Source: an uncultured Actinomycetota bacterium
Lineage (GTDB): Bacteria; Actinomycetota; Actinomycetes; DATJPE01
Assembly: GCA_963820065.1 (NCBI GenBank)
Contig: CAWFYM010000001.1
Location: forward strand, 168,767 to 232,766
DNA: 64,000 nucleotides
Direction of reading: 5' to 3'
Shown here one piece after another: positions 2,279-60,991 of this stretch. Below the pieces are notes generated by a model, which had not been told where the DNA came from, ran no database searches, and saw only the letters and a program-made list of their open reading frames with translations. The position numbers were made by a program, and so were the translations under genes. Within the stretch, counting starts at the first letter, position 1, and every line of letters starts with the position of its first letter.

Positions 2279-3550
2279 ATGGCGGCCATGGCTGCCACGT
2301 TCTCGCTGTCCGCTGCTGACCTCGAACGTCAGCGACTGCTACGCCGAGCCAAGGCCGTCGCCACCGGGCTGCTTCTGGTTGCGGCGGCCGTGTTTGTCGC
2401 GGTTCAACCAGCTGTCGAATCCGGAGCAGCCTGGGCCGGCTACGTCTCGGCCGCTGCGGAGGCGGGGATGGTAGGCGGCCTGGCCGACTGGTTCGCAGTG
2501 ACGGCACTGTTCCGCCACCCGCTCGGGATCCCGATTCCGCACACCGCGCTGATCCCGTCGCGCAAGGACGCCCTCGGCGCAGGCCTGGGGGCCTTCGTGG
2601 GTGACAATTTCCTGGCCCCGGAGGTGGTACGCCGTCGCCTTCAGCAGGTGGACGTGGCCGGGCGGGCCGGGGCCTGGTTGGCGCGCGAGGAGCATGCCAA
2701 GCGCGTGGCCGAGGAGATCGCGGTGGCGCTCAAGGGCGCGATCGACGTACTGCGTGACGACGACGTCCGTGCGGTCGCCGAGGAGGCGATCGGGCAGCGG
2801 GTTCGCTCCACGGCGGTCGCGCCGGTCCTCGGGAGGTTGCTCGGCGACGTCGTCGCGGACGGCTCGCACCACGCCCTGGTCGACGTCGCCTCCGAGCGCA
2901 CGGCCGCCTGGCTCGCGAGCAACCAAGCCACGGTCATCCGGATCGTGCAGAGCCAGGCCCCGACCTGGTCGCCGCGCTTCGTCGACCGTGCGCTCGCCAA
3001 GCGGGTCGCTGCCGAGCTGTCCCGCATTGCCAGCGAGGTCGCGGCCGACCCAGAGCACCCGATCCGCCGCGGGCTGGACGGATACCTCGAGGGGCTGGCC
3101 CGGGATCTGCGAGACGACGCTGCGACCGGTGAACGTCTCCAGGCCCTGGTCGGGCGCCTCCTCGAGCACGCCGCCACTCGTGAGGCGCTCGGCACGCTCG
3201 TGGGCGCCACGCGCCGCGCCGTCGTCGCGATCATCGAGCAGCCGGACGGTGAGCTTCGGGGGCGCACCATCCAAGCGCTCCAGGCCCTTGGCGAGCGGCT
3301 CTCGTCGGACGGTCAGCTCCGGGCCAAGGCCGACCAGTGGGTGGGGGACGCGGCCGAGCACGTCGTGACGACCTATCGCGACGAGCTGACGCGGGTCATC
3401 ACCGACACCGTCGATCGTTGGGACGGCGACGAGGCCGCACGTCGCATCGAACTCGCCGCCGGTCGAGACCTGCAGTTCATCCGGGTCAACGGGACGGTCG
3501 TGGGTGCCTTGGCTGGCATAGCCATCCACGCGGCGGCCACCGTCCTCTAG
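2279..3550 (+). CDS. DUF445 domain-containing protein
   Basis: 423-aa ORF with N-terminal membrane helices and the DWFAVTALFRHPLGIPIPHTALIP motif characteristic of DUF445. Confidence 0.75.
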   Translation: MAAMAATFSLSAADLERQRLLRRAKAVATGLLLVAAAVFVAVQPAVESGAAWAGYVSAAAEAGMVGGLADWFAVTALFRHPLGIPIPHTALIPSRKDALGAGLGAFVGDNFLAPEVVRRRLQQVDVAGRAGAWLAREEHAKRVAEEIAVALKGAIDVLRDDDVRAVAEEAIGQRVRSTAVAPVLGRLLGDVVADGSHHALVDVASERTAAWLASNQATVIRIVQSQAPTWSPRFVDRALAKRVAAELSRIASEVAADPEHPIRRGLDGYLEGLARDLRDDAATGERLQALVGRLLEHAATREALGTLVGATRRAVVAIIEQPDGELRGRTIQALQALGERLSSDGQLRAKADQWVGDAAEHVVTTYRDELTRVITDTVDRWDGDEAARRIELAAGRDLQFIRVNGTVVGALAGIAIHAAATVL

Positions 3551-3556
3551 GGCTGC

Positions 3557-10212: not shown

Positions 10213-12528
<2,316 letters not shown>

Positions 12529-12830
12529 CCGCCCCACCACCCCCTCCGCCCCCCACACGTGATCATGCGCAAATGGCCCCTGCCGTCCGGTCGGCCGCGC
12601 CCCGCCCGCCCGTCCACCCACCCCCCTTCGTGATCATGCGCAGATGGCCCCTCCGAGATCGCTCGGTCAGGGGCCATCTGCGCATGATCACGAAGGGGGA
12701 CGGTGGTCGTGGGGGAGGTTGAGCGTGGGCAGAGGGGCCATCTGCGCATGATCACGAGGGATGGTGGGTCGGGGTGATGGGGATGGGGATGGGGATGGGG
12801 CGCCCGGGGTCACGCGGGGTCACGCGGGGG
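12529..12830. repeat. Composite palindromic repeat element, copy A: C-rich arm, 2 direct core copies, loop, 2 inverted core copies, G-rich/G4 arm
   Basis: Core GTGATCATGCGCA(A/G)ATGGCCCCT at 12558-12580 and 12628-12650; its reverse complement at 12668-12690 and 12732-12754. The inner pair forms a roughly 31-bp perfect hairpin around loop ccgagatcgctcggtc. GGGGATGGGGATGGGGATGGGG lies at about 12775-12796. Confidence 0.85.
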
Positions 12831-22280: not shown

Positions 22281-23348
22281 TCACCCCCCAGAAGACCTTG
22301 ACCCCTCGATGCCGATCTTCCTGTCCGCGTGTTTGGCGGCGACCCAGGCGTCCATGTCGGTCCACACGTCGAGCAGCCAGGCCTCGCGCTCGTCCTCGGG
22401 CGGGACCTGCTCACGTGGGACCAGGGTCCACGCGACCGTGAGCTGGTTGTCCTGGGGAATCGCGCGCCAGAGCTCATCGACCTCGTCGAGGTCGTCGAGC
22501 CCGGCATGCGCGGCGTACACCGCGTCGGCGTCCGGGCAGGCGTCCAGAGCGGCGAAGGCGCCCGCCGTGTGGGGGAGCAGGAGGTGGGTCAGGCTCTCGG
22601 CACGGCTGGCCGCTTCGAGGTCCCCCTTCTCTCGGAGGCGCTCGATGCGGCGTAGTCGCCGCTCCTCGGTGAAGTTCCCTCCCTCGGGGAAGATCAACAG
22701 CGCGTCTGCCGGCCCCATGCCAGAGGCCAGGCTCGCGATCGCCGAAACCGGGTCGGCGCCCGGTCGGCGCTTGCTGGCCACGGTGTTGATGAACCGGTTG
22801 GGGAGCCGGTTCAGCAGGACATCGATGAACGGGTCGAGCTGGAGGGTGTGCTTGAGCACGATCCGTGGCCGTCGCCCCGCCCCCGACAGGATCTCGTGGG
22901 CCAACAAGAACGAATCGCCCGGACCGGCGTGACGGGACAACACGATCATCGGTCGATCGCGACCAGTCGCCGTGCTGATCTCGCGACCGGGGTCCTCGAC
23001 GACTGAGACCGTGAAGACCTGCTCGGCGACGGTCACCAAGGCACCAAGGGCCCAGCGCAGCAACCGGTAGTGCTGGTCGATGAACCACGGCGAACGGATC
23101 TTGTAGCCGAACCCGCTGCCGACCCAGAGGCCGAAGGCAGCGAGCAGCCCGAGCAGCTCGACGGCGAGGTAGGCCAGCGCAAAGGCCAGGAGCCTCAGCG
23201 CTCGCCACGATCCCGGGAGGAAGGGTGACGCCGCTGCGGCGCCGATCACGAGGAGCGGCAGGGACGCCAGGATGCCGAAGGCCACAGCCATCACGAGGGG
23301 TGCGATCAGCAGCCGCCGAAGCCACAACGGGGGCACGGGAAGATTCAC
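22281..23348 (-). CDS. lysophospholipid (1-acyl-sn-glycerol-3-phosphate) acyltransferase family protein
   Basis: N-terminal TM helices; acyltransferase motifs SRHAGPGD (HX4D) and IFPEGG. GTG start at 23348 overlaps the patatin stop (GTGA). Confidence 0.75.
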   Translation of the reverse strand: MNLPVPPLWLRRLLIAPLVMAVAFGILASLPLLVIGAAAASPFLPGSWRALRLLAFALAYLAVELLGLLAAFGLWVGSGFGYKIRSPWFIDQHYRLLRWALGALVTVAEQVFTVSVVEDPGREISTATGRDRPMIVLSRHAGPGDSFLLAHEILSGAGRRPRIVLKHTLQLDPFIDVLLNRLPNRFINTVASKRRPGADPVSAIASLASGMGPADALLIFPEGGNFTEERRLRRIERLREKGDLEAASRAESLTHLLLPHTAGAFAALDACPDADAVYAAHAGLDDLDEVDELWRAIPQDNQLTVAWTLVPREQVPPEDEREAWLLDVWTDMDAWVAAKHADRKIGIEGSRSSGG

Positions 23349-24177
23349 GACCGGCCCAGGTTGTGGTCGTCGAGATAGCCCGCCGCGGCGTCGTACGACC
23401 GTTGGATCCTGCTCGGCACCCGGCTCAGGTCGCGGCTCTTGAGCTGGCCGGGGTCGTTGTAGCGCAGCTGCTCGCCGGTCGGCAGCACGTGGGCGGTCAC
23501 GTGGTCAGGAAGCGCCTCGAGATCGCCGGCGTAGCGGTGGCGACGTGCGATCTCAAAGGCGACGAGCGCCACTTCCCACGGCTTGGTGGGTGGCGTGAGC
23601 GGCTCCTCGACCCGCCCCACCTGAAGGACGTAGATCTCCGTCGCGCCCAGGTCGACGGCCCGGCCGAGTGGGATTGAGTCGACGATCCCACCGTCGAGGA
23701 AGTGCTCCCCGTCGATCTCCACGGGAGGGAAGAGCCCGGGGACGGCGGAGGAGGCCATGATCGCCGGGATCAGCGGACCGCGGTCGAAGTAGTGAGCCTG
23801 CGCGCGCTGGATGCTCGCCGCGACGCATTGGAACGGCACGGGCAGGTCCTCGATGAGCCGGTAGGGAAGATGCGCCTCCAGAAGCTTGCGCAGGGCTGTG
23901 TTGCTCGTGACCGACGTTCGCGTGCGTGCGAGTGTCTGCAACTTCGTGTAGACCGAGCCACCGAAGACGTCGGTGTCCTGGATCCCCGTCCAGACCTCGG
24001 CCATCAGATCGACCGTCCCCGCGGTCGGGTCCGCCGCGATCATGGCGCCGTTGATGGCGCCGATGCTGGTGCCGATGACGAGGTCGGGCACGATGCCGCG
24101 CTCGATCAACGCCTTGAGCATGCCGACCTCGTGGGCGCCGAGCGGCCCCCCTCCGCCGAGGACGAACGCGGTGCTCA
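23345..24177 (-). CDS. patatin-like phospholipase family protein
   Basis: From GTG near 24177 (RBS GGGAGGAG): VSTAFVLGGGGPLGAHEVGMLKAL... (GGGxxG), GTSIGA (GxSxG) and DGG in the C-terminal half. The track ORF to 24628 is an Arg/Pro-rich extension. Confidence 0.8.
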
Positions 24178-24395
24178 CCGGACGGTCTCCTCCCAGGCGC
24201 CGCCTGTGCGGGCGGGGGTCGAACCTACCGGCGCCTGGGTTTGAGCGGGCGAGTCGCCGGGGATGAGTCCCAAGCCCGCCCCGCTCCGGCGGCCTCCGGC
24301 GTCGCCACGAGCGGGGCGGGACCAACCTTGGGCCGTGGCCCGGCCACCCGCTCGACGATCGTGCGGGTGGGTCCGGACTCGTCATCCACAGACTC

Positions 24396-25913
24396 ATGTG
24401 GGGGATACCCACGGTCGATGGACGCGTTCTAGGTTGGCCGCCATGGAGATCGCTCCGGGCGTACGGTCCGGAGTCCGTCGGGTGCGCTCCGAGCGACTCG
24501 GCGCCGGCGGGATGGTGCTGGCCGCGGCAGCGCCTGCTGCTCACGGCTTGCGCGTCGTCGGCCGGGACGCCGGGCAGCTTGGCGCCCCTCGAGCCCACGG
24601 AGGTGGCCACCCCGGTGGCCTCGGCCACCCCGTCCGAGTCAGCGACGACGGAGTCCGAGGAAGCAGCTATCGAAGCCGCGGTACGGGAGTACTTCGCGGC
24701 GATGGACGAAGCGGTCCGACCGGCGATGTCTCAGACGTTCGTCGCCGGCAACCACGCGCCGACGTGTCCCTGCCGAAGTTCTTGCGGACTGCCGTGAAGC
24801 AGGGCGTTCGCGCAGGGTGAGGATCGTGGGAGCGAGTGGCGGTTGATTGACCTTTCAGCGAGCGTGACACCGGTTCCGGTCGCGCAGTGTCGACGGTGAC
24901 CTACAAGACAGTCCGCGATACGAGACAGCGATCCGACGATGGTGACCGTCAAGAGCTTCGAAGCCTAGCACCGTCGCCAAGATCCAGCGAGGTCGTTCTG
25001 GTCCAGATCGCGGGCCGATTGGTTCGGTCGGGCCGACGAGATGCTCATCTCGGAGACGCTCATGAGGGTGCGGCTTGGCTGGTCTCCTCTCGCTACGGCG
25101 ATGTCGCGCTGGTTGCTCCAGCACTGTCTCGGCCGACGCGGCACGGATGCGACATCGGTATCGTCTGCGAGGTCGTATGGCAATGATGAGTTGAAGGCCA
25201 TCGAGGGGCGGGTGTTGATTCCGGCGGAAGGGTTCGAGGGCGATCCCGGGGTCCGGCACGAGGCGGCTACCTGTGACGGCTGCTCGTGGGCGCTCACGCC
25301 CAGCTGTGCCGGCAACGACGAGAACACGCAGAATGGCTGTGCTGCGACGGTCACCCTCTGCCCGCCGCCAGCCCTTCGCTACGACATCCTGCGCCGACGA
25401 CCCGGCGAGGCCGCGTTCGTCTTTGTCGGGTCGACCTGCATTGCTCCCGGGACGCCCTTGACCGTCGACGACCTGACGCCCCAGGTTCGCGACCACTTCC
25501 TCGACCTGCTCCCCGACCAGCAGCCCTCCTTCCAACCGACCGCGGGGGCGTTGGTCAACGTGCCCGCGTTGTTTGCCGCAGGGCAGCCCCGGACGATCGG
25601 GCGGGACACGTTCGACCTGGCTGGGTTCACCGTGGTGCTCACCGCCGACGCTCGCTGGACCTGGGACTTCGGTGATGGCGCCACGCAGACGTACGACGTG
25701 CCTGGTGGGCCGTACCCCAACGACGACGTCGCTCATACCTACCTGGACTCGGAAGATCGGGCCGTCGTGGTCACGACCACCTGGGACGGCGAGTTCATGG
25801 TCGACGGGCTCGGTCCGTTCCCCGTAGCCGGGCCGCCGGTGACCCAGGTGAGTCCTCCGCTGCTTGTCCCCGTGCGCGGCGCGCGGTCGGAGCTCGTCTC
25901 CGGGGACGGCTGA
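24396..25913 (+). pseudogene. Possible disrupted secreted lipoprotein/PKD-like gene, comprising lipobox-containing N-terminal fragments (24396-24797, in two frames) and a PKD-like C-terminal ORF (25041-25913), separated by a lower-GC stretch with stops in all frames
   Basis: One frame gives MVLAAAAPAA (h-region). The +1 frame gives LLLTACASSAGTPGS (lipobox LTAC), then PTEVATPV...AAIEAAVREYFAAMDE. The downstream ORF carries a Cys-rich segment and TWDFGDGATQTY (PKD-like WDFGDG) with no signal peptide of its own. Confidence 0.35.
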
Positions 25914-26077
25914 TCGGCGAGCGCCGAGCGCGGGGATGGGATTCGGCGTTGGTGAACGGCAACTGTCGGAGGATGGGCTCGGCTGAAGCCCGGAAACGGC
26001 TCCTCCGTGTCCGGTACGGTCGCGGCGAGGTGGGCGGTAAGGCCGTTCTGCCCGGCTGGTGCGAGGAGAGGACCTGC

Positions 26078-26486
26078 GATGTCGACGATCGTCGTCGGGT
26101 ACGTGGACACCCCCGAGGGCCGTGCCGCCCTCACCCGTGGCGTCGAGGAGGCCAAGCTGCGCTCGAGCCGCCTCGTGGTCGTGAACTCGAGCAAGGAGGG
26201 GCCGCAGAGCAGCAAGCAAGCGGTCAAGGTCGAAGAGCTGCTCGAGAGCATCCGTGCCGATCTCGCTGGCGTGGGCATCGACTTCGCTGTGCGCGGCCTG
26301 GTCCGAGGGCAGGAGGTGGCCGAAGACGTTGTGGACGTCGCTCATGAGGAGGCCGCCGAGCTGCTGGTCATCGGCCTTCGTCGGCGCAGTCCAGTCGGCA
26401 AGCTGATCCTTGGCAGCAACGCCCAGCGGATCCTGCTCGACGCGGACTGCCCCGTGCTGGCCGTCAAGGCCGCCAAAGACGCGTGA
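26078..26486 (+). CDS. universal stress protein (UspA family)
   Basis: MSTIVVGYVDTPEGRAAL...LLVIGLRRRSPVGKLILGSNAQRILLDADCPVLAVK is the UspA fold. RBS GGAGAGGA precedes the ATG. Confidence 0.85.
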
Positions 26487-27076
26487 CGGCACAGTCGCTG
26501 AGGCTTGCCCAGGAGCCGGCCGCGGACGCTCTGCTCACGAACGACCCGTTCGCCTTGCTCGTGGGAATGCTGCTCGACCAGCAGTTCCCCATGGAGCGGG
26601 CGTTCGCGGGGCCCTACCTCATCGCCTCCCGGATGGGCACTCCGACCCGGCTGGATCCGGCGGCCATCGCGGCCGCTGATCCTGAGGAGTTCCGAGCGCT
26701 GATGACCGGACCACCGGCGGTGCATCGGTATCCAGGATCGATGGGAGAGCGGGTGCAAAGCCTCGCTGCCCTGGTCGTCGAGACCTATGACGGCGACGTG
26801 GAGCGGCTATGGACCGAAGCCACGTCCGGCGCCGATCTGCTCGGACGTTTGCAGGCGCTTCCCGGGTTCGGGCGGCAGAAGGCCCAGATCTTCGTCGCCC
26901 TGCTCGGCAAGCAGCGCGCGGTCAGACCGGAAGGGTGGCGAGAGGCCGCGGGAGCGTACGGCGACGACGATTCACGGCGCTCGGTCGCCGATGTGCGTGA
27001 CCAGGTGACCTTGAGCGAGGTGCGCGCTTTCAAGCAGGAGGCCAAGGCGGCTGCAAGGGCTGCCAAGGGCTCGTGA
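26483..27076 (+). CDS. HhH-GPD-type base excision DNA repair protein
   Basis: GTG overlaps the usp stop (GTGA). ...LLVGMLLDQQFPMERAF... and LQALPGFGRQKAQIFVALLG form the HhH motif. Confidence 0.7.
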   Translation: MTAQSLRLAQEPAADALLTNDPFALLVGMLLDQQFPMERAFAGPYLIASRMGTPTRLDPAAIAAADPEEFRALMTGPPAVHRYPGSMGERVQSLAALVVETYDGDVERLWTEATSGADLLGRLQALPGFGRQKAQIFVALLGKQRAVRPEGWREAAGAYGDDDSRRSVADVRDQVTLSEVRAFKQEAKAAARAAKGS

Positions 27077-49775: not shown

Positions 49776-50060
49776 GATGGGGTCAACCCCACCATCGTTC
49801 GTGATCATGCGCGGATGGCCCCTCTTGCCGCGCTCGGACCAACCTCCTAGGCCCCCGCTGGCCGCTGATCATGCGCGGATGGCCCCGCTTGCCCCTCGCC
49901 GCCACCGCCCGCCCGACCCGCCCCTCGGCGGCTAGGGGCCATCTGCGCATGATCACGAAGAGGGTGTGGGGTGTCCGATGGGGTGTGGGGTGTGGGGGTG
50001 TGGGGTGAGTTGGGGCTTTGGGAGTCGCGGGGGGTGGGCGTGCGACGATGTCGCGGCCGT
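49776..50060. repeat. Composite palindromic repeat element, copy B (right part; left C-rich arm at about 48468-48524 is separated from it by the IS3 element)
   Basis: Forward cores GTGATCATGCGCGGATGGCCCCT (49801-49823) and GCTGATCATGCGCGGATGGCCCC (about 49864-49886); inverted core AGGGGCCATCTGCGCATGATCAC (about 49934-49956); then G-rich GGGGTGT repeats at 49962-50040. Confidence 0.8.
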
Positions 50061-59920: not shown

Positions 59921-60163
59921 ATGGCCAGCTCGAAGGCGAACACCGCAGTCTTCGCGGTGACGGCCATCGTGGCGACCCCGATCGCCCGCAAGCTGACCAC
60001 GGTGGTCTGGACGGCGGCGACCGGTAAGGCCTCGCCGGAGAGCGTCGATGATCCGGACGAGCGACTGGGTGAGGCCGTGGCCTTCGCGGTCTTGGCCGGA
60101 GCGACCGCGGGGCTTATCCGGATGTTGCTCAACCGCAACGCCCGCAAGCTCCTCGGCGCCTGA
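59921..60163 (+). CDS. DUF4235 domain-containing protein
   Basis: MASSKANTAVFAVTAIVATPIARKLTTVVWTAATGKASPESVDDPDERLGEAVAFAVLAGATAGLIRMLLNRNARKLLGA. RBS GAGGAGGGG. The track ORF from 59549 is a junk extension. Confidence 0.7.
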   Translation: MASSKANTAVFAVTAIVATPIARKLTTVVWTAATGKASPESVDDPDERLGEAVAFAVLAGATAGLIRMLLNRNARKLLGA

Positions 60164-60500
60164 CCCACCCCTCCGCCCAACCCCACCCGCTCGTGATCAT
60201 GCGCAGATGGCCCCTGTCGGGCCGCGTGCCGCGCCGCGCAACCCCAACCCCCCTCGTGATCATGCGCAGATGGCCCCTATTTTCCGGTGCCGGGGCCTCT
60301 AGCCGTCGGTGGCGTCGTGGTGCTGCACAGGTGCCCGCCGCTTCGTCGCGGTTCCTGTGACTCGATCGCTTGGGTGCTGTCCGCAGTCCCACAGGCGCGG
60401 AAGTACGGGCCATTTGCGCATGATCACGGATGGGTGTGGGTCTAACTGGGGAGGATCAGCGGGGGACCAGGGGCCATCTGCGCATGATCACGAGGGGGGT
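60164..60500. repeat. Composite palindromic repeat element, copy C: C-rich arm, 2 direct cores, 130-bp central segment, 2 inverted cores, G-rich arm
   Basis: GTGATCATGCGCAGATGGCCCCT at 60193-60215 and 60257-60279. Inverted copies are GGGCCATTTGCGCATGATCAC (about 60408-60428) and AGGGGCCATCTGCGCATGATCAC (60469-60491). The stop codon of the convergent DUF3093 gene lies inside the last inverted core. Confidence 0.85.
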
Positions 60501-60991
60501 GGTGCTGGGGGGCGGGCAGCCTCGAGGGCGGCGACGAGGGCCTCGGGATGGCGCGTGGACACATACCAGTACGGCGCTGGGTCTGCCGCGTCCGCCACCT
60601 CAACCCGGACGGCGGTCGGCACCCAGCTGCGGAGGTACAAGTAGGCCCGGGGATCAGCCCCGGGGCCTCTCAGCCAGCGCGCGGCCGCGGCGTCGAGAGC
60701 CACGGCGGCACCCGCTTGGGCTAGGGGCAACCGGGCCCGCCCCGCGCGAAGCGTCGCGTCTTCGACGCTGACCCGCGCGCTCGTCGCTCGCAGCCCCAGC
60801 ACCACCCCCACACCACAGCCAAGCAGCACCACCAGCCCTGCCCACGGTCCGAGCGCGGCCTCGATCGCTACCGCGAACACGGCGACGACGCCCAGCGCCA
60901 CGACCCACAGGCCTGGGGGGGCCGGAATCGACTCGCGAAAAGCCACGTCACGCGAGCCGCTGGCCGCGTCGCCTGTTCCACCACCCGCCAT
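60488..60991 (-). CDS. DUF3093 domain-containing protein
   Basis: Two N-terminal TM helices, then ...RAYLYLRSWVPTAVRVEVADAADPAPYWYVSTRHPEALVAAL, matching DUF3093 (Rv2698-like). The start may be internal. Confidence 0.7.
   Translation of the reverse strand: MAGGGTGDAASGSRDVAFRESIPAPPGLWVVALGVVAVFAVAIEAALGPWAGLVVLLGCGVGVVLGLRATSARVSVEDATLRAGRARLPLAQAGAAVALDAAAARWLRGPGADPRAYLYLRSWVPTAVRVEVADAADPAPYWYVSTRHPEALVAALEAARPPAPPPS

Follow-up and report, generated by a model that had tools for sequence, protein, structure and literature searches.

The locus and its neighbours

The window, i.e. the whole stretch of 64,000 nucleotides that was analysed, is actinobacterial in character and has a GC content of 0.697. 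The region considered here is bounded on the left by acyltransferase and patatin-like phospholipase genes and on the right by the universal stress protein gene usp, which is intact (Pfam Usp, E 3.5e-19, profile positions 3-141 of 141) and keeps the same position in all syntenic loci. Between these neighbours lie the remnant of a lipoprotein gene and a gene for a PKD-like secreted protein, with the following features:

22281-23348, minus strand: acyltransferase gene, left boundary of the region
23345-24178, minus strand: patatin-like phospholipase gene, left boundary of the region
24179-24442, no strand: divergent intergenic region between the patatin and lipoprotein genes
24443-25065, plus strand: lipoprotein gene remnant as a whole, assigned by orthology and synteny
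24443-24538, plus strand: remnant segment 1, with start codon, Arg-rich n-region and h-region (MEIAPGVRSGVRRVRSERLGAGGMVLAAAAPA), frame class 1
24534-24779, plus strand: remnant segment 2, with lipobox, Thr/Pro/Ser linker and the start of the DUF6318-like domain (AAIEAAVREYFAAMDE...CPCR), frame class 2
24780-25065, plus strand: C-terminal half of the remnant, i.e. the low-GC stretch with stops in all frames, placed by frameshift-aware alignments
25052-25055, plus strand: GGAG, putative Shine-Dalgarno-like motif 6 nt before the ATG at 25062
25062-25913, plus strand: PKD-like secreted-protein gene, open throughout, with codons ~25101-25178 out of the ancestral frame
25101-25178, plus strand: out-of-frame patch in the PKD-like gene, placed by DNA alignment and frameshift-aware alignment with four references
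25179-25910, plus strand: mature PKD-like domain, free of lesions
26079-26486, plus strand: usp, intact gene at the downstream boundary of the cassette

From 24443 to about 25178 all three plus-strand frames are closed, in agreement with the first-pass annotation, which had seen no convincing ORF here. Stops fall at 24795, 24897 and 24966 in frame class 2, at 24818, 24848 and 25184 in class 1, and at 24844, 24865, 24943 and 25063 in class 0, and no plus-strand ORF spans 24443-25062. Upstream, TAGGTT at 24430-24435 (7 nt 5' of the ATG at 24443) is a conserved -10-like TANNNT element; in the DNA alignment CTAG(G/A)TT is conserved just 5' of the common ATG in those relatives that align there. Its placing would suit a leaderless transcript and suggests a promoter -10. 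GGAG or AGGAG is also seen just 5' of the PKD-like gene ATG in L005, the nearest relative.

Intact relatives carry two genes

The syntenic loci come from uncultured Actinomycetes. In L004, a contig from a MAG that bears the label 'Actinomycetes bacterium' and a k141-style name (the kind given by a short-read assembler), the gene order is acyltransferase, patatin, lipoprotein (2147-2716), PKD-like gene (2713-3552), usp and a gene of 197 aa. In L003, L001 and L005 the lipoprotein and PKD-like genes likewise form a pair with an ATGA stop/start overlap, and in the more distant L007 (~50% identity) and L013 a DUF6318-type lipoprotein gene lies directly 5' of the PKD-like gene. Another locus, L002, belongs to a set of ENA contigs, and siblings from that set show sporadic frameshifts in conserved genes. 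Read from the intact loci, the cassette is a pair of genes, for a lipoprotein of ~190 aa and a secreted PKD-like protein of ~280 aa, set between the acyltransferase-patatin pair and usp, and in the intact relatives the two are predicted to be translationally coupled through the ATGA overlap. The first encodes a signal peptide with lipobox, a Pro/Ser/Thr linker and a DUF6318-type domain; in the product of the second, the signal peptide is followed by a CxxxxxC pair, a Cys-rich domain and, at the C-terminus, a PKD/Ig-like beta-sandwich.

The first-pass annotation had instead proposed that a single gene encodes a secreted lipoprotein ending in a PKD-like domain, and that this gene is frameshifted and carries an inserted or decayed segment of ~400 bp. 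A frameshifted lipoprotein gene is indeed present; that it forms a single gene with the PKD-like ORF is, we judge, highly improbable. The remnants do happen to read in frame from 24969 into the PKD ORF, but in five relatives (L004, L003, L005, L001 and L007) the first of two genes ends in a stop that overlaps the start of the second as ATGA, and in the relatives the second gene has its own signal peptide. The ancestral lipoprotein stop, TGA at 25063-25065, still overlaps the PKD-like gene start in an ATGA retained at 25062-25065, the 400 bp are homologous to the lipoprotein C-terminus and are not extra DNA, and repeats in the region are at chance level. Two independent intact genes in relatives were the observation that the first-pass annotation had named as telling against its model; such genes exist, although the ORFs of the window match them only as fragments.

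The two genes differ greatly in how well they are conserved. Intact lipoprotein orthologues share 22-32% amino acid identity with one another vs 64-92% for their PKD partners, and the lipoprotein relationships are incongruent with the PKD tree. In L025 and L027 the mature PKD domains differ at two residues (in the N-terminal Cys pair, GIYC vs GMLC), yet the signal-peptide alleles are different.

Searches for a near-identical contig found none for the window locus: among genome contigs the closest was L004 at 77%, and the metagenome contig scan gave no match closer than 50%. Exact-protein look-ups of the PKD ORF and usp returned no records, and a word-indexed search with the L004 lipoprotein returned two proteins only.

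As sequenced, the lipoprotein gene is broken by single-base frameshifts

In the DNA alignment the ATG at 24443 coincides with the start codon in each of the four relatives, and it opens the frame that contains MVLAAAAPAA. By tblastn, 24476-24541 (n- and h-region, class 1) matches RRLRRVRGLGGGWVLAAALSLA of L002. The lipobox LLLTAC (Cys codon 24549-24551) lies in the next frame, class 2, followed there by the linker and AAIEAAVREYFAAMDE; the hydrophobic run, lipobox and linker are as the first-pass annotation had described them, and so is the first break, which it had placed between the hydrophobic run and the lipobox and which we locate as a 1-nt frameshift near 24539 that parts segment 1 from segment 2. 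The tblastn comparison that it had proposed, with intact orthologues as queries, puts the pieces of the lipoprotein in different frames: 24534-24776 (lipobox to CPCR) in class 2, with 46% identity to L004 residues 23-102 (E 1.7e-15), and 24860-25030, within the C-terminal half, in class 1.

Translation from the ATG at 24443 ends at the TGA at 24818 after 125 codons without reaching the lipobox in frame, and the lipobox-bearing frame has no signal peptide upstream. Start codon, n-region, h-region and a lipobox of the form [LVI][ASTVI][GAS]C are thus nowhere found in one frame, and as sequenced the gene is predicted to yield no lipoprotein. Removal of a single base restores a canonical lipoprotein signal (Kyte-Doolittle mean 2.45).

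Frameshift-aware alignment of the lipoprotein, with L004, L005, L003, L001, P0046 and a profile of these as references, places further switches between classes 1 and 2 at ~24780, 24803-24806, 24873 and 24911, and two to three more in 24953-25053. GC content at third codon positions independently backs the switches in 24782-24805, 24875-24910 and 24911-24960, and the remnant's GRAVSTVTYKT resembles the family consensus GRAVVTVSYRT. In all, the gene carries at least five to eight one-base frameshifts, of which at least five are robust against the intact orthologues L003, L004 and L005, disabling lesions of the kind by which a pseudogene is recognized. The remnant is not reduced in length (619 nt vs 563-578 nt in intact relatives), its repaired reading path holds zero stop codons, and it shares 27% amino acid and 66% nucleotide identity with L005.

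Alternating frameshifts can be an artefact of alignment at low identity, and this was considered and ruled out. With a frameshift penalty of -12 the control, 20 pairings of intact orthologues with references, gave 0 frameshifts in 20/20, and because this control is clean the excess at that penalty (one to four frameshifts per reference in the window, two to five in L002) is not such an artefact. A penalty of -9 gives some spurious frameshift pairs, and we counted as robust the sites found at -12 together with those in the DNA alignment. An extra frame excursion near the TGD motif (24717-24757) appeared at the weakest penalty only, was not backed by third-position GC, and was left uncounted.

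As sequenced, the PKD-like gene has its signal peptide out of frame and its mature domain undamaged

The PKD-like gene is 84% identical to its counterpart P0001/L005. Its homologues (n = 44) are mostly ~280 aa long with a signal peptide and CxxxxxC pair, followed by a motif of the form V-GNDE-DAIEG-LIPA. As reported by the first-pass annotation, the downstream ORF (25041-25913) is Cys-rich and carries WDFGDG with no signal peptide: six of its Cys are invariant, and at its N-terminus the highest Kyte-Doolittle mean over 11 residues is 0.76 as sequenced, too low for a hydrophobic core, vs 2.06 when repaired and 2.3-3.4 in four orthologues. It matches Pfam PKD at E 0.0036 and 17.7 bits, below the cutoff of 23.5, and the orthologues score 23.1-23.2 bits.

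The missing signal peptide is accounted for by the out-of-frame patch, which begins with a loss of about one nucleotide near 25101-25122 and ends with a gain of one nucleotide at 25176-25178, where the window has TGCGAGGTCGTATGGCAAT, one base more than all four relatives in the DNA alignment. In its ancestral frame (class 1) the patch encodes an h-region (VALVAPAL), a plausible cleavage site (ALS|R) and the CxxxxxC pair (GCDIGIVCEVV).

Downstream of the patch the picture changes abruptly: within 60 nt the identity to L005 climbs from 0.68 to 0.90, and the lesions end exactly at 25179. In the mature domain a Cys-rich alpha/beta part at the N-terminus is followed at the C-terminus by a beta-sandwich of PKD/Ig-like fold that bears the WxFGDG motif as WDFGDG. 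It aligns with L005 without gaps over 735 nt (86.8% nucleotide and 92% amino acid identity) at a dN/dS of 0.07, and the two lineages have derived residues in balanced numbers (five and six). The mature domain is under strong purifying selection, with no relaxation.

The low-GC stretch is part of the cassette

The first-pass annotation had remarked on a visibly lower GC content between about 24800 and 25230. The drop is real, if modest, at 0.615-0.635 in 200-nt windows over 24800-25200 vs 0.697 for the window. It is also found in intact orthologues: the L004 lipoprotein gene has a GC content of 0.626 vs 0.671 for the whole L004 locus, and that of L005 has 0.631 vs 0.698 for the L005 PKD gene. 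Along its length the stretch aligns colinearly with the orthologues, first with the C-terminal half of their lipoprotein gene and then with the signal-peptide part of their PKD-like gene. As judged from these alignments, the island is the fast-evolving, lower-GC part of the cassette and is so in every relative. An insertion, mobile element or other foreign DNA, the origin first suggested for it, was rejected because the region is colinear with the orthologues, their GC is equally low, and a repeat search found none above chance (one weak pairing was at chance level).

As an alternative, a small RNA or regulatory region had been proposed for 24800-25230. The missing ORF is the sole support for this, and we consider it extremely unlikely. 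At E <= 1 the sole Rfam match in 24000-26300 lies at 24307-24357, upstream of and outside the low-GC segment, and is at chance level (23.4 bits against a cutoff of 70, E 0.78). The segment folds no better than its shuffles (z = +0.70; 139 of 200 shuffles fold at least equally well). The promoter scan that the first-pass annotation had recommended, extended to terminators, gave nothing above expectation, such a scan being uninformative for this type of organism. The segment also shows protein homology in switching frames, and the -10-like element and Shine-Dalgarno-like motif would belong to the two protein genes.

Genuine decay or local consensus error

The lesions could be biological, in which case the lipoprotein gene is a pseudogene, or they could be errors in the consensus sequence. 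On balance we lean towards genuine decay. Elsewhere in the window, 20 ORFs match their Pfam models over the full length (e.g. PEPcase 1-919 of 919, citrate synthase 1-357 of 357), so the window has no general indel problem and the lesions are local. A second lineage, L002, has the same two genes damaged with the same distribution of lesions at positions different from those in the window.

The alternative, to which we give real weight although we do not think it the probable one, is that the two-gene cassette is real and intact and that the frameshifts are local consensus errors from co-assembled strains with very different alleles. The hypervariability of the lipoprotein and signal peptide would supply such alleles: the lipoproteins are far more divergent than their PKD partners, and the signal peptides of L025 and L027 differ over nearly identical mature domains. 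The lesions of the window are limited to this variable part, ending at the boundary at 25179, and consist of ±1 indels only, alternating in sign between two frames, with length kept and a repaired path free of stops. Once repaired, both products look fully functional as predicted from sequence, the lipoprotein regaining its n-region, h-region and lipobox, and the PKD-like protein its h-region (2.06), ALS|R site and CxxxxxC pair, and the strong purifying selection on the mature PKD domain fits a protein that is still exported. The lineage is known from metagenomes only, and related ENA contigs, apparently long-read assemblies to judge from their contig_NNNN naming alone, carry indel errors in conserved genes, with frameshifts in SpoIIE (L001), an AI-2E transporter (L003), and hydrolase and PKD genes (L025 and L026). 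Against consensus error stand the 20 other frameshift-free ORFs of the window, which mean that any error process must be strictly local; the approximate indel sites, which lie outside homopolymers; and the fact that real bacterial pseudogenes bearing several frameshifts are common.

If decay is genuine, slow neutral decay is a poor description of it. The lesions are ±1 indels between two frames that leave length and a stop-free repaired path, and the lipobox, h-region, Cys pair and family motifs are still readable in hidden frames; since these motifs are preserved, the lesions, if real, are recent. The lack of relaxed selection on the mature PKD domain would likewise be unexpected had the export signal been lost long ago. 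An argument for old neutral decay from the low identity of the remnant to L005 (27% amino acid, 66% nucleotide) was dropped because intact orthologues are equally divergent (22-32%).

A further reading, which we regard as rather unlikely, treats the lipoprotein gene together with the signal-peptide portion of its PKD-like partner as a hypervariable cassette that recombines: strains would swap its alleles, with a sharp breakpoint at the first mature codon, and it would be inactivated repeatedly, independently in the window and in L002, while strong purifying selection on the mature PKD-like domain persists. If true, such a pattern would point to diversifying selection at a surface locus or one of the phage-receptor type, and the PKD-like protein would still be useful without an export signal of its own.

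Comparison with known families

DUF6318 (PF19843) is a family of actinobacterial lipoproteins with which the orthologues of the first gene share a lipobox, a low-complexity linker and a domain of ~130 aa with TG(D/N) and CxC. Against a cutoff of 23.8 bits, L001 scores 32.9 (positions 27-157 of 158) and L013 31.0, with L005 (23.2) and L004 (22.4) just below. The window copy has no open frame and neither its fragments nor the repaired composite gave a match; because it has no score of its own, its membership rests on orthology and synteny. The term DUF6318 was absent from the literature searched.

Known PKD domains (PF00801/PF18911) include those of ColH collagenase, PrtV PKD1 and the archaeal S-layer PKD. 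Whereas these lie within a large enzyme or S-layer protein, the PKD-like protein of the window is small and stands alone. Its N-terminal ~130 aa, with the six invariant Cys, are not prominent in the top matches, which are beta-sandwich domains.

The lipoprotein remnant resembles ordinary frameshift pseudogenes in having intact orthologues, several disabling ±1 indels, intact neighbours and no mobile element. It is unlike them in that all lesions are ±1 indels alternating between two frames, in that the repaired path is free of nonsense codons and nothing has been deleted on balance, and in that the damage is sharply limited to the hypervariable part; a local consensus error would look alike. 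The locus adds one more example to a familiar class, that of frameshifted pseudogenes or else of mis-assembled loci, and its genes belong to DUF6318 and to a family of small stand-alone PKD-like proteins.

Proposed course of events and annotation

Under genuine decay, the 1-nt shift near 24539 would sever the start codon and hydrophobic core from the lipobox, and at least four to seven further ±1 shifts would scramble the lipoprotein domain, with the result that every frame meets a stop. A compensating ±1 pair (~25101 and ~25177) would put the hydrophobic core, cleavage site and first Cys pair of the PKD-like protein out of frame and, with the core and cleavage site so displaced, the product as sequenced could not take the Sec route. 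The -10-like TAGGTT and the GGAG suggest that the PKD-like ORF may still be transcribable and translatable, and its product, having neither export signal nor first disulphide pair, would probably be cytoplasmic and misfolded. These events would amount to the recent loss of a dispensable, hypervariable surface lipoprotein, and the PKD-like gene would be either freshly inactivated or on the verge of decay. Real lesions would also mean that the cassette is disappearing from at least two lineages.

For annotation, the region is best entered as a pair of loci: a lipoprotein pseudogene of the DUF6318 family, and a PKD-like gene whose 5' end is frameshifted. It should not go in as a single broken gene, an island or an RNA, and a flag for read-level verification is due. 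In this uncultured actinomycete lineage, evolution of the lipoprotein and of the PKD signal peptide is much faster than that of the mature PKD-like domain and incongruent with it, and this hypervariable 5' part with its sharp boundary is the sole mildly notable by-product of the analysis.

Evolution of the lipoprotein/PKD locus

The DUF6318-family lipoprotein gene, broken in the window, and the signal-peptide part of the PKD-like gene that follows it (together 24443-25178) change much more rapidly than the mature PKD domain (25179-25910), and do so incongruently with it across the window and the related loci L005, L002, L004, L025 and L027. Amino acid identity between the window and L005 is 27% in the fast part against 92% in the mature domain, and between L002 and L004 it is 50% against 70%. 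L025 and L027 carry different signal-peptide alleles joined to mature domains that differ by two residues only. The boundary between the two parts is sharp which, taken together with the contrast in rate and the incongruence, suggests that recombination exchanges alleles here.

L002 (5243-5960), which belongs to a different organism (79% amino acid identity in the mature PKD domain), is damaged in the same manner as the window, at other positions. Its mature PKD domain is intact, and the frameshifts are as follows:

L002, ~5492, 5577, 5660, 5745 and 5756: lipoprotein gene
L002, ~5889 and 5940: PKD signal peptide

In a distant relative, L013, the lipoprotein gene is followed by a long ORF:

L013, 1494-5242: DUF6318 lipoprotein (209 aa) and an overlapping downstream ORF

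This overlapping ORF runs for 1145 codons, passing from a PKD-like WDFGDG domain into a long hydrophobic region resembling a multi-pass membrane protein without an intervening stop; this is due either to a fusion or to loss of the stop codon.

Frameshifts in the compared contigs

Contigs from ENA with names of the form contig_NNNN, which appear to be long-read assemblies, contain split or frameshifted conserved genes (SpoIIE, AI-2E transporter, alpha/beta hydrolase and the PKD-like gene):

L001, 7975-9113
L003, 9880-11068
L025, ~727 and ~2302
L026, ~2262 and ~2461

Frameshifts in these loci should not be read biologically without checking.

Flanking sequences

Some 60-70 nt before the usp start lies the motif GGTCCGGTAC(G/C)GTC (window ~26006-26020), which is kept in four syntenic loci (L001-L004) while the remaining spacer is not conserved; the L005 sequence stops partway through it. 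Because it contains a TANNNT -10-like hexamer (TACGGT), the motif is probably the usp promoter or an operator.

Two open stretches were rejected as genes and attributed to high GC. The first is a 450-nt extension by which the mechanical patatin ORF (23345-24628, minus strand) reaches into the lipoprotein/PKD region, upstream of the real patatin start at 24178 (VSTAFVLGGGG); the second is a 545-aa antisense ORF spanning 24855-26492.

A repeat element elsewhere in the window

A repeat search of the window recovered at least 12 copies, in both orientations, of a ~31-50-nt element with the core CGTGATCATGCGCAGATGGCCCCT adjoining a C-rich run, clustered at three apparently intergenic spots:

12520-12782
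49788-49983
60154-60517

Several neighbouring copies form perfect inverted pairs (e.g. 12622-12652 and 12669-12699, spaced by 16 nt), and the repeat resembles intergenic elements of the REP or MITE type.
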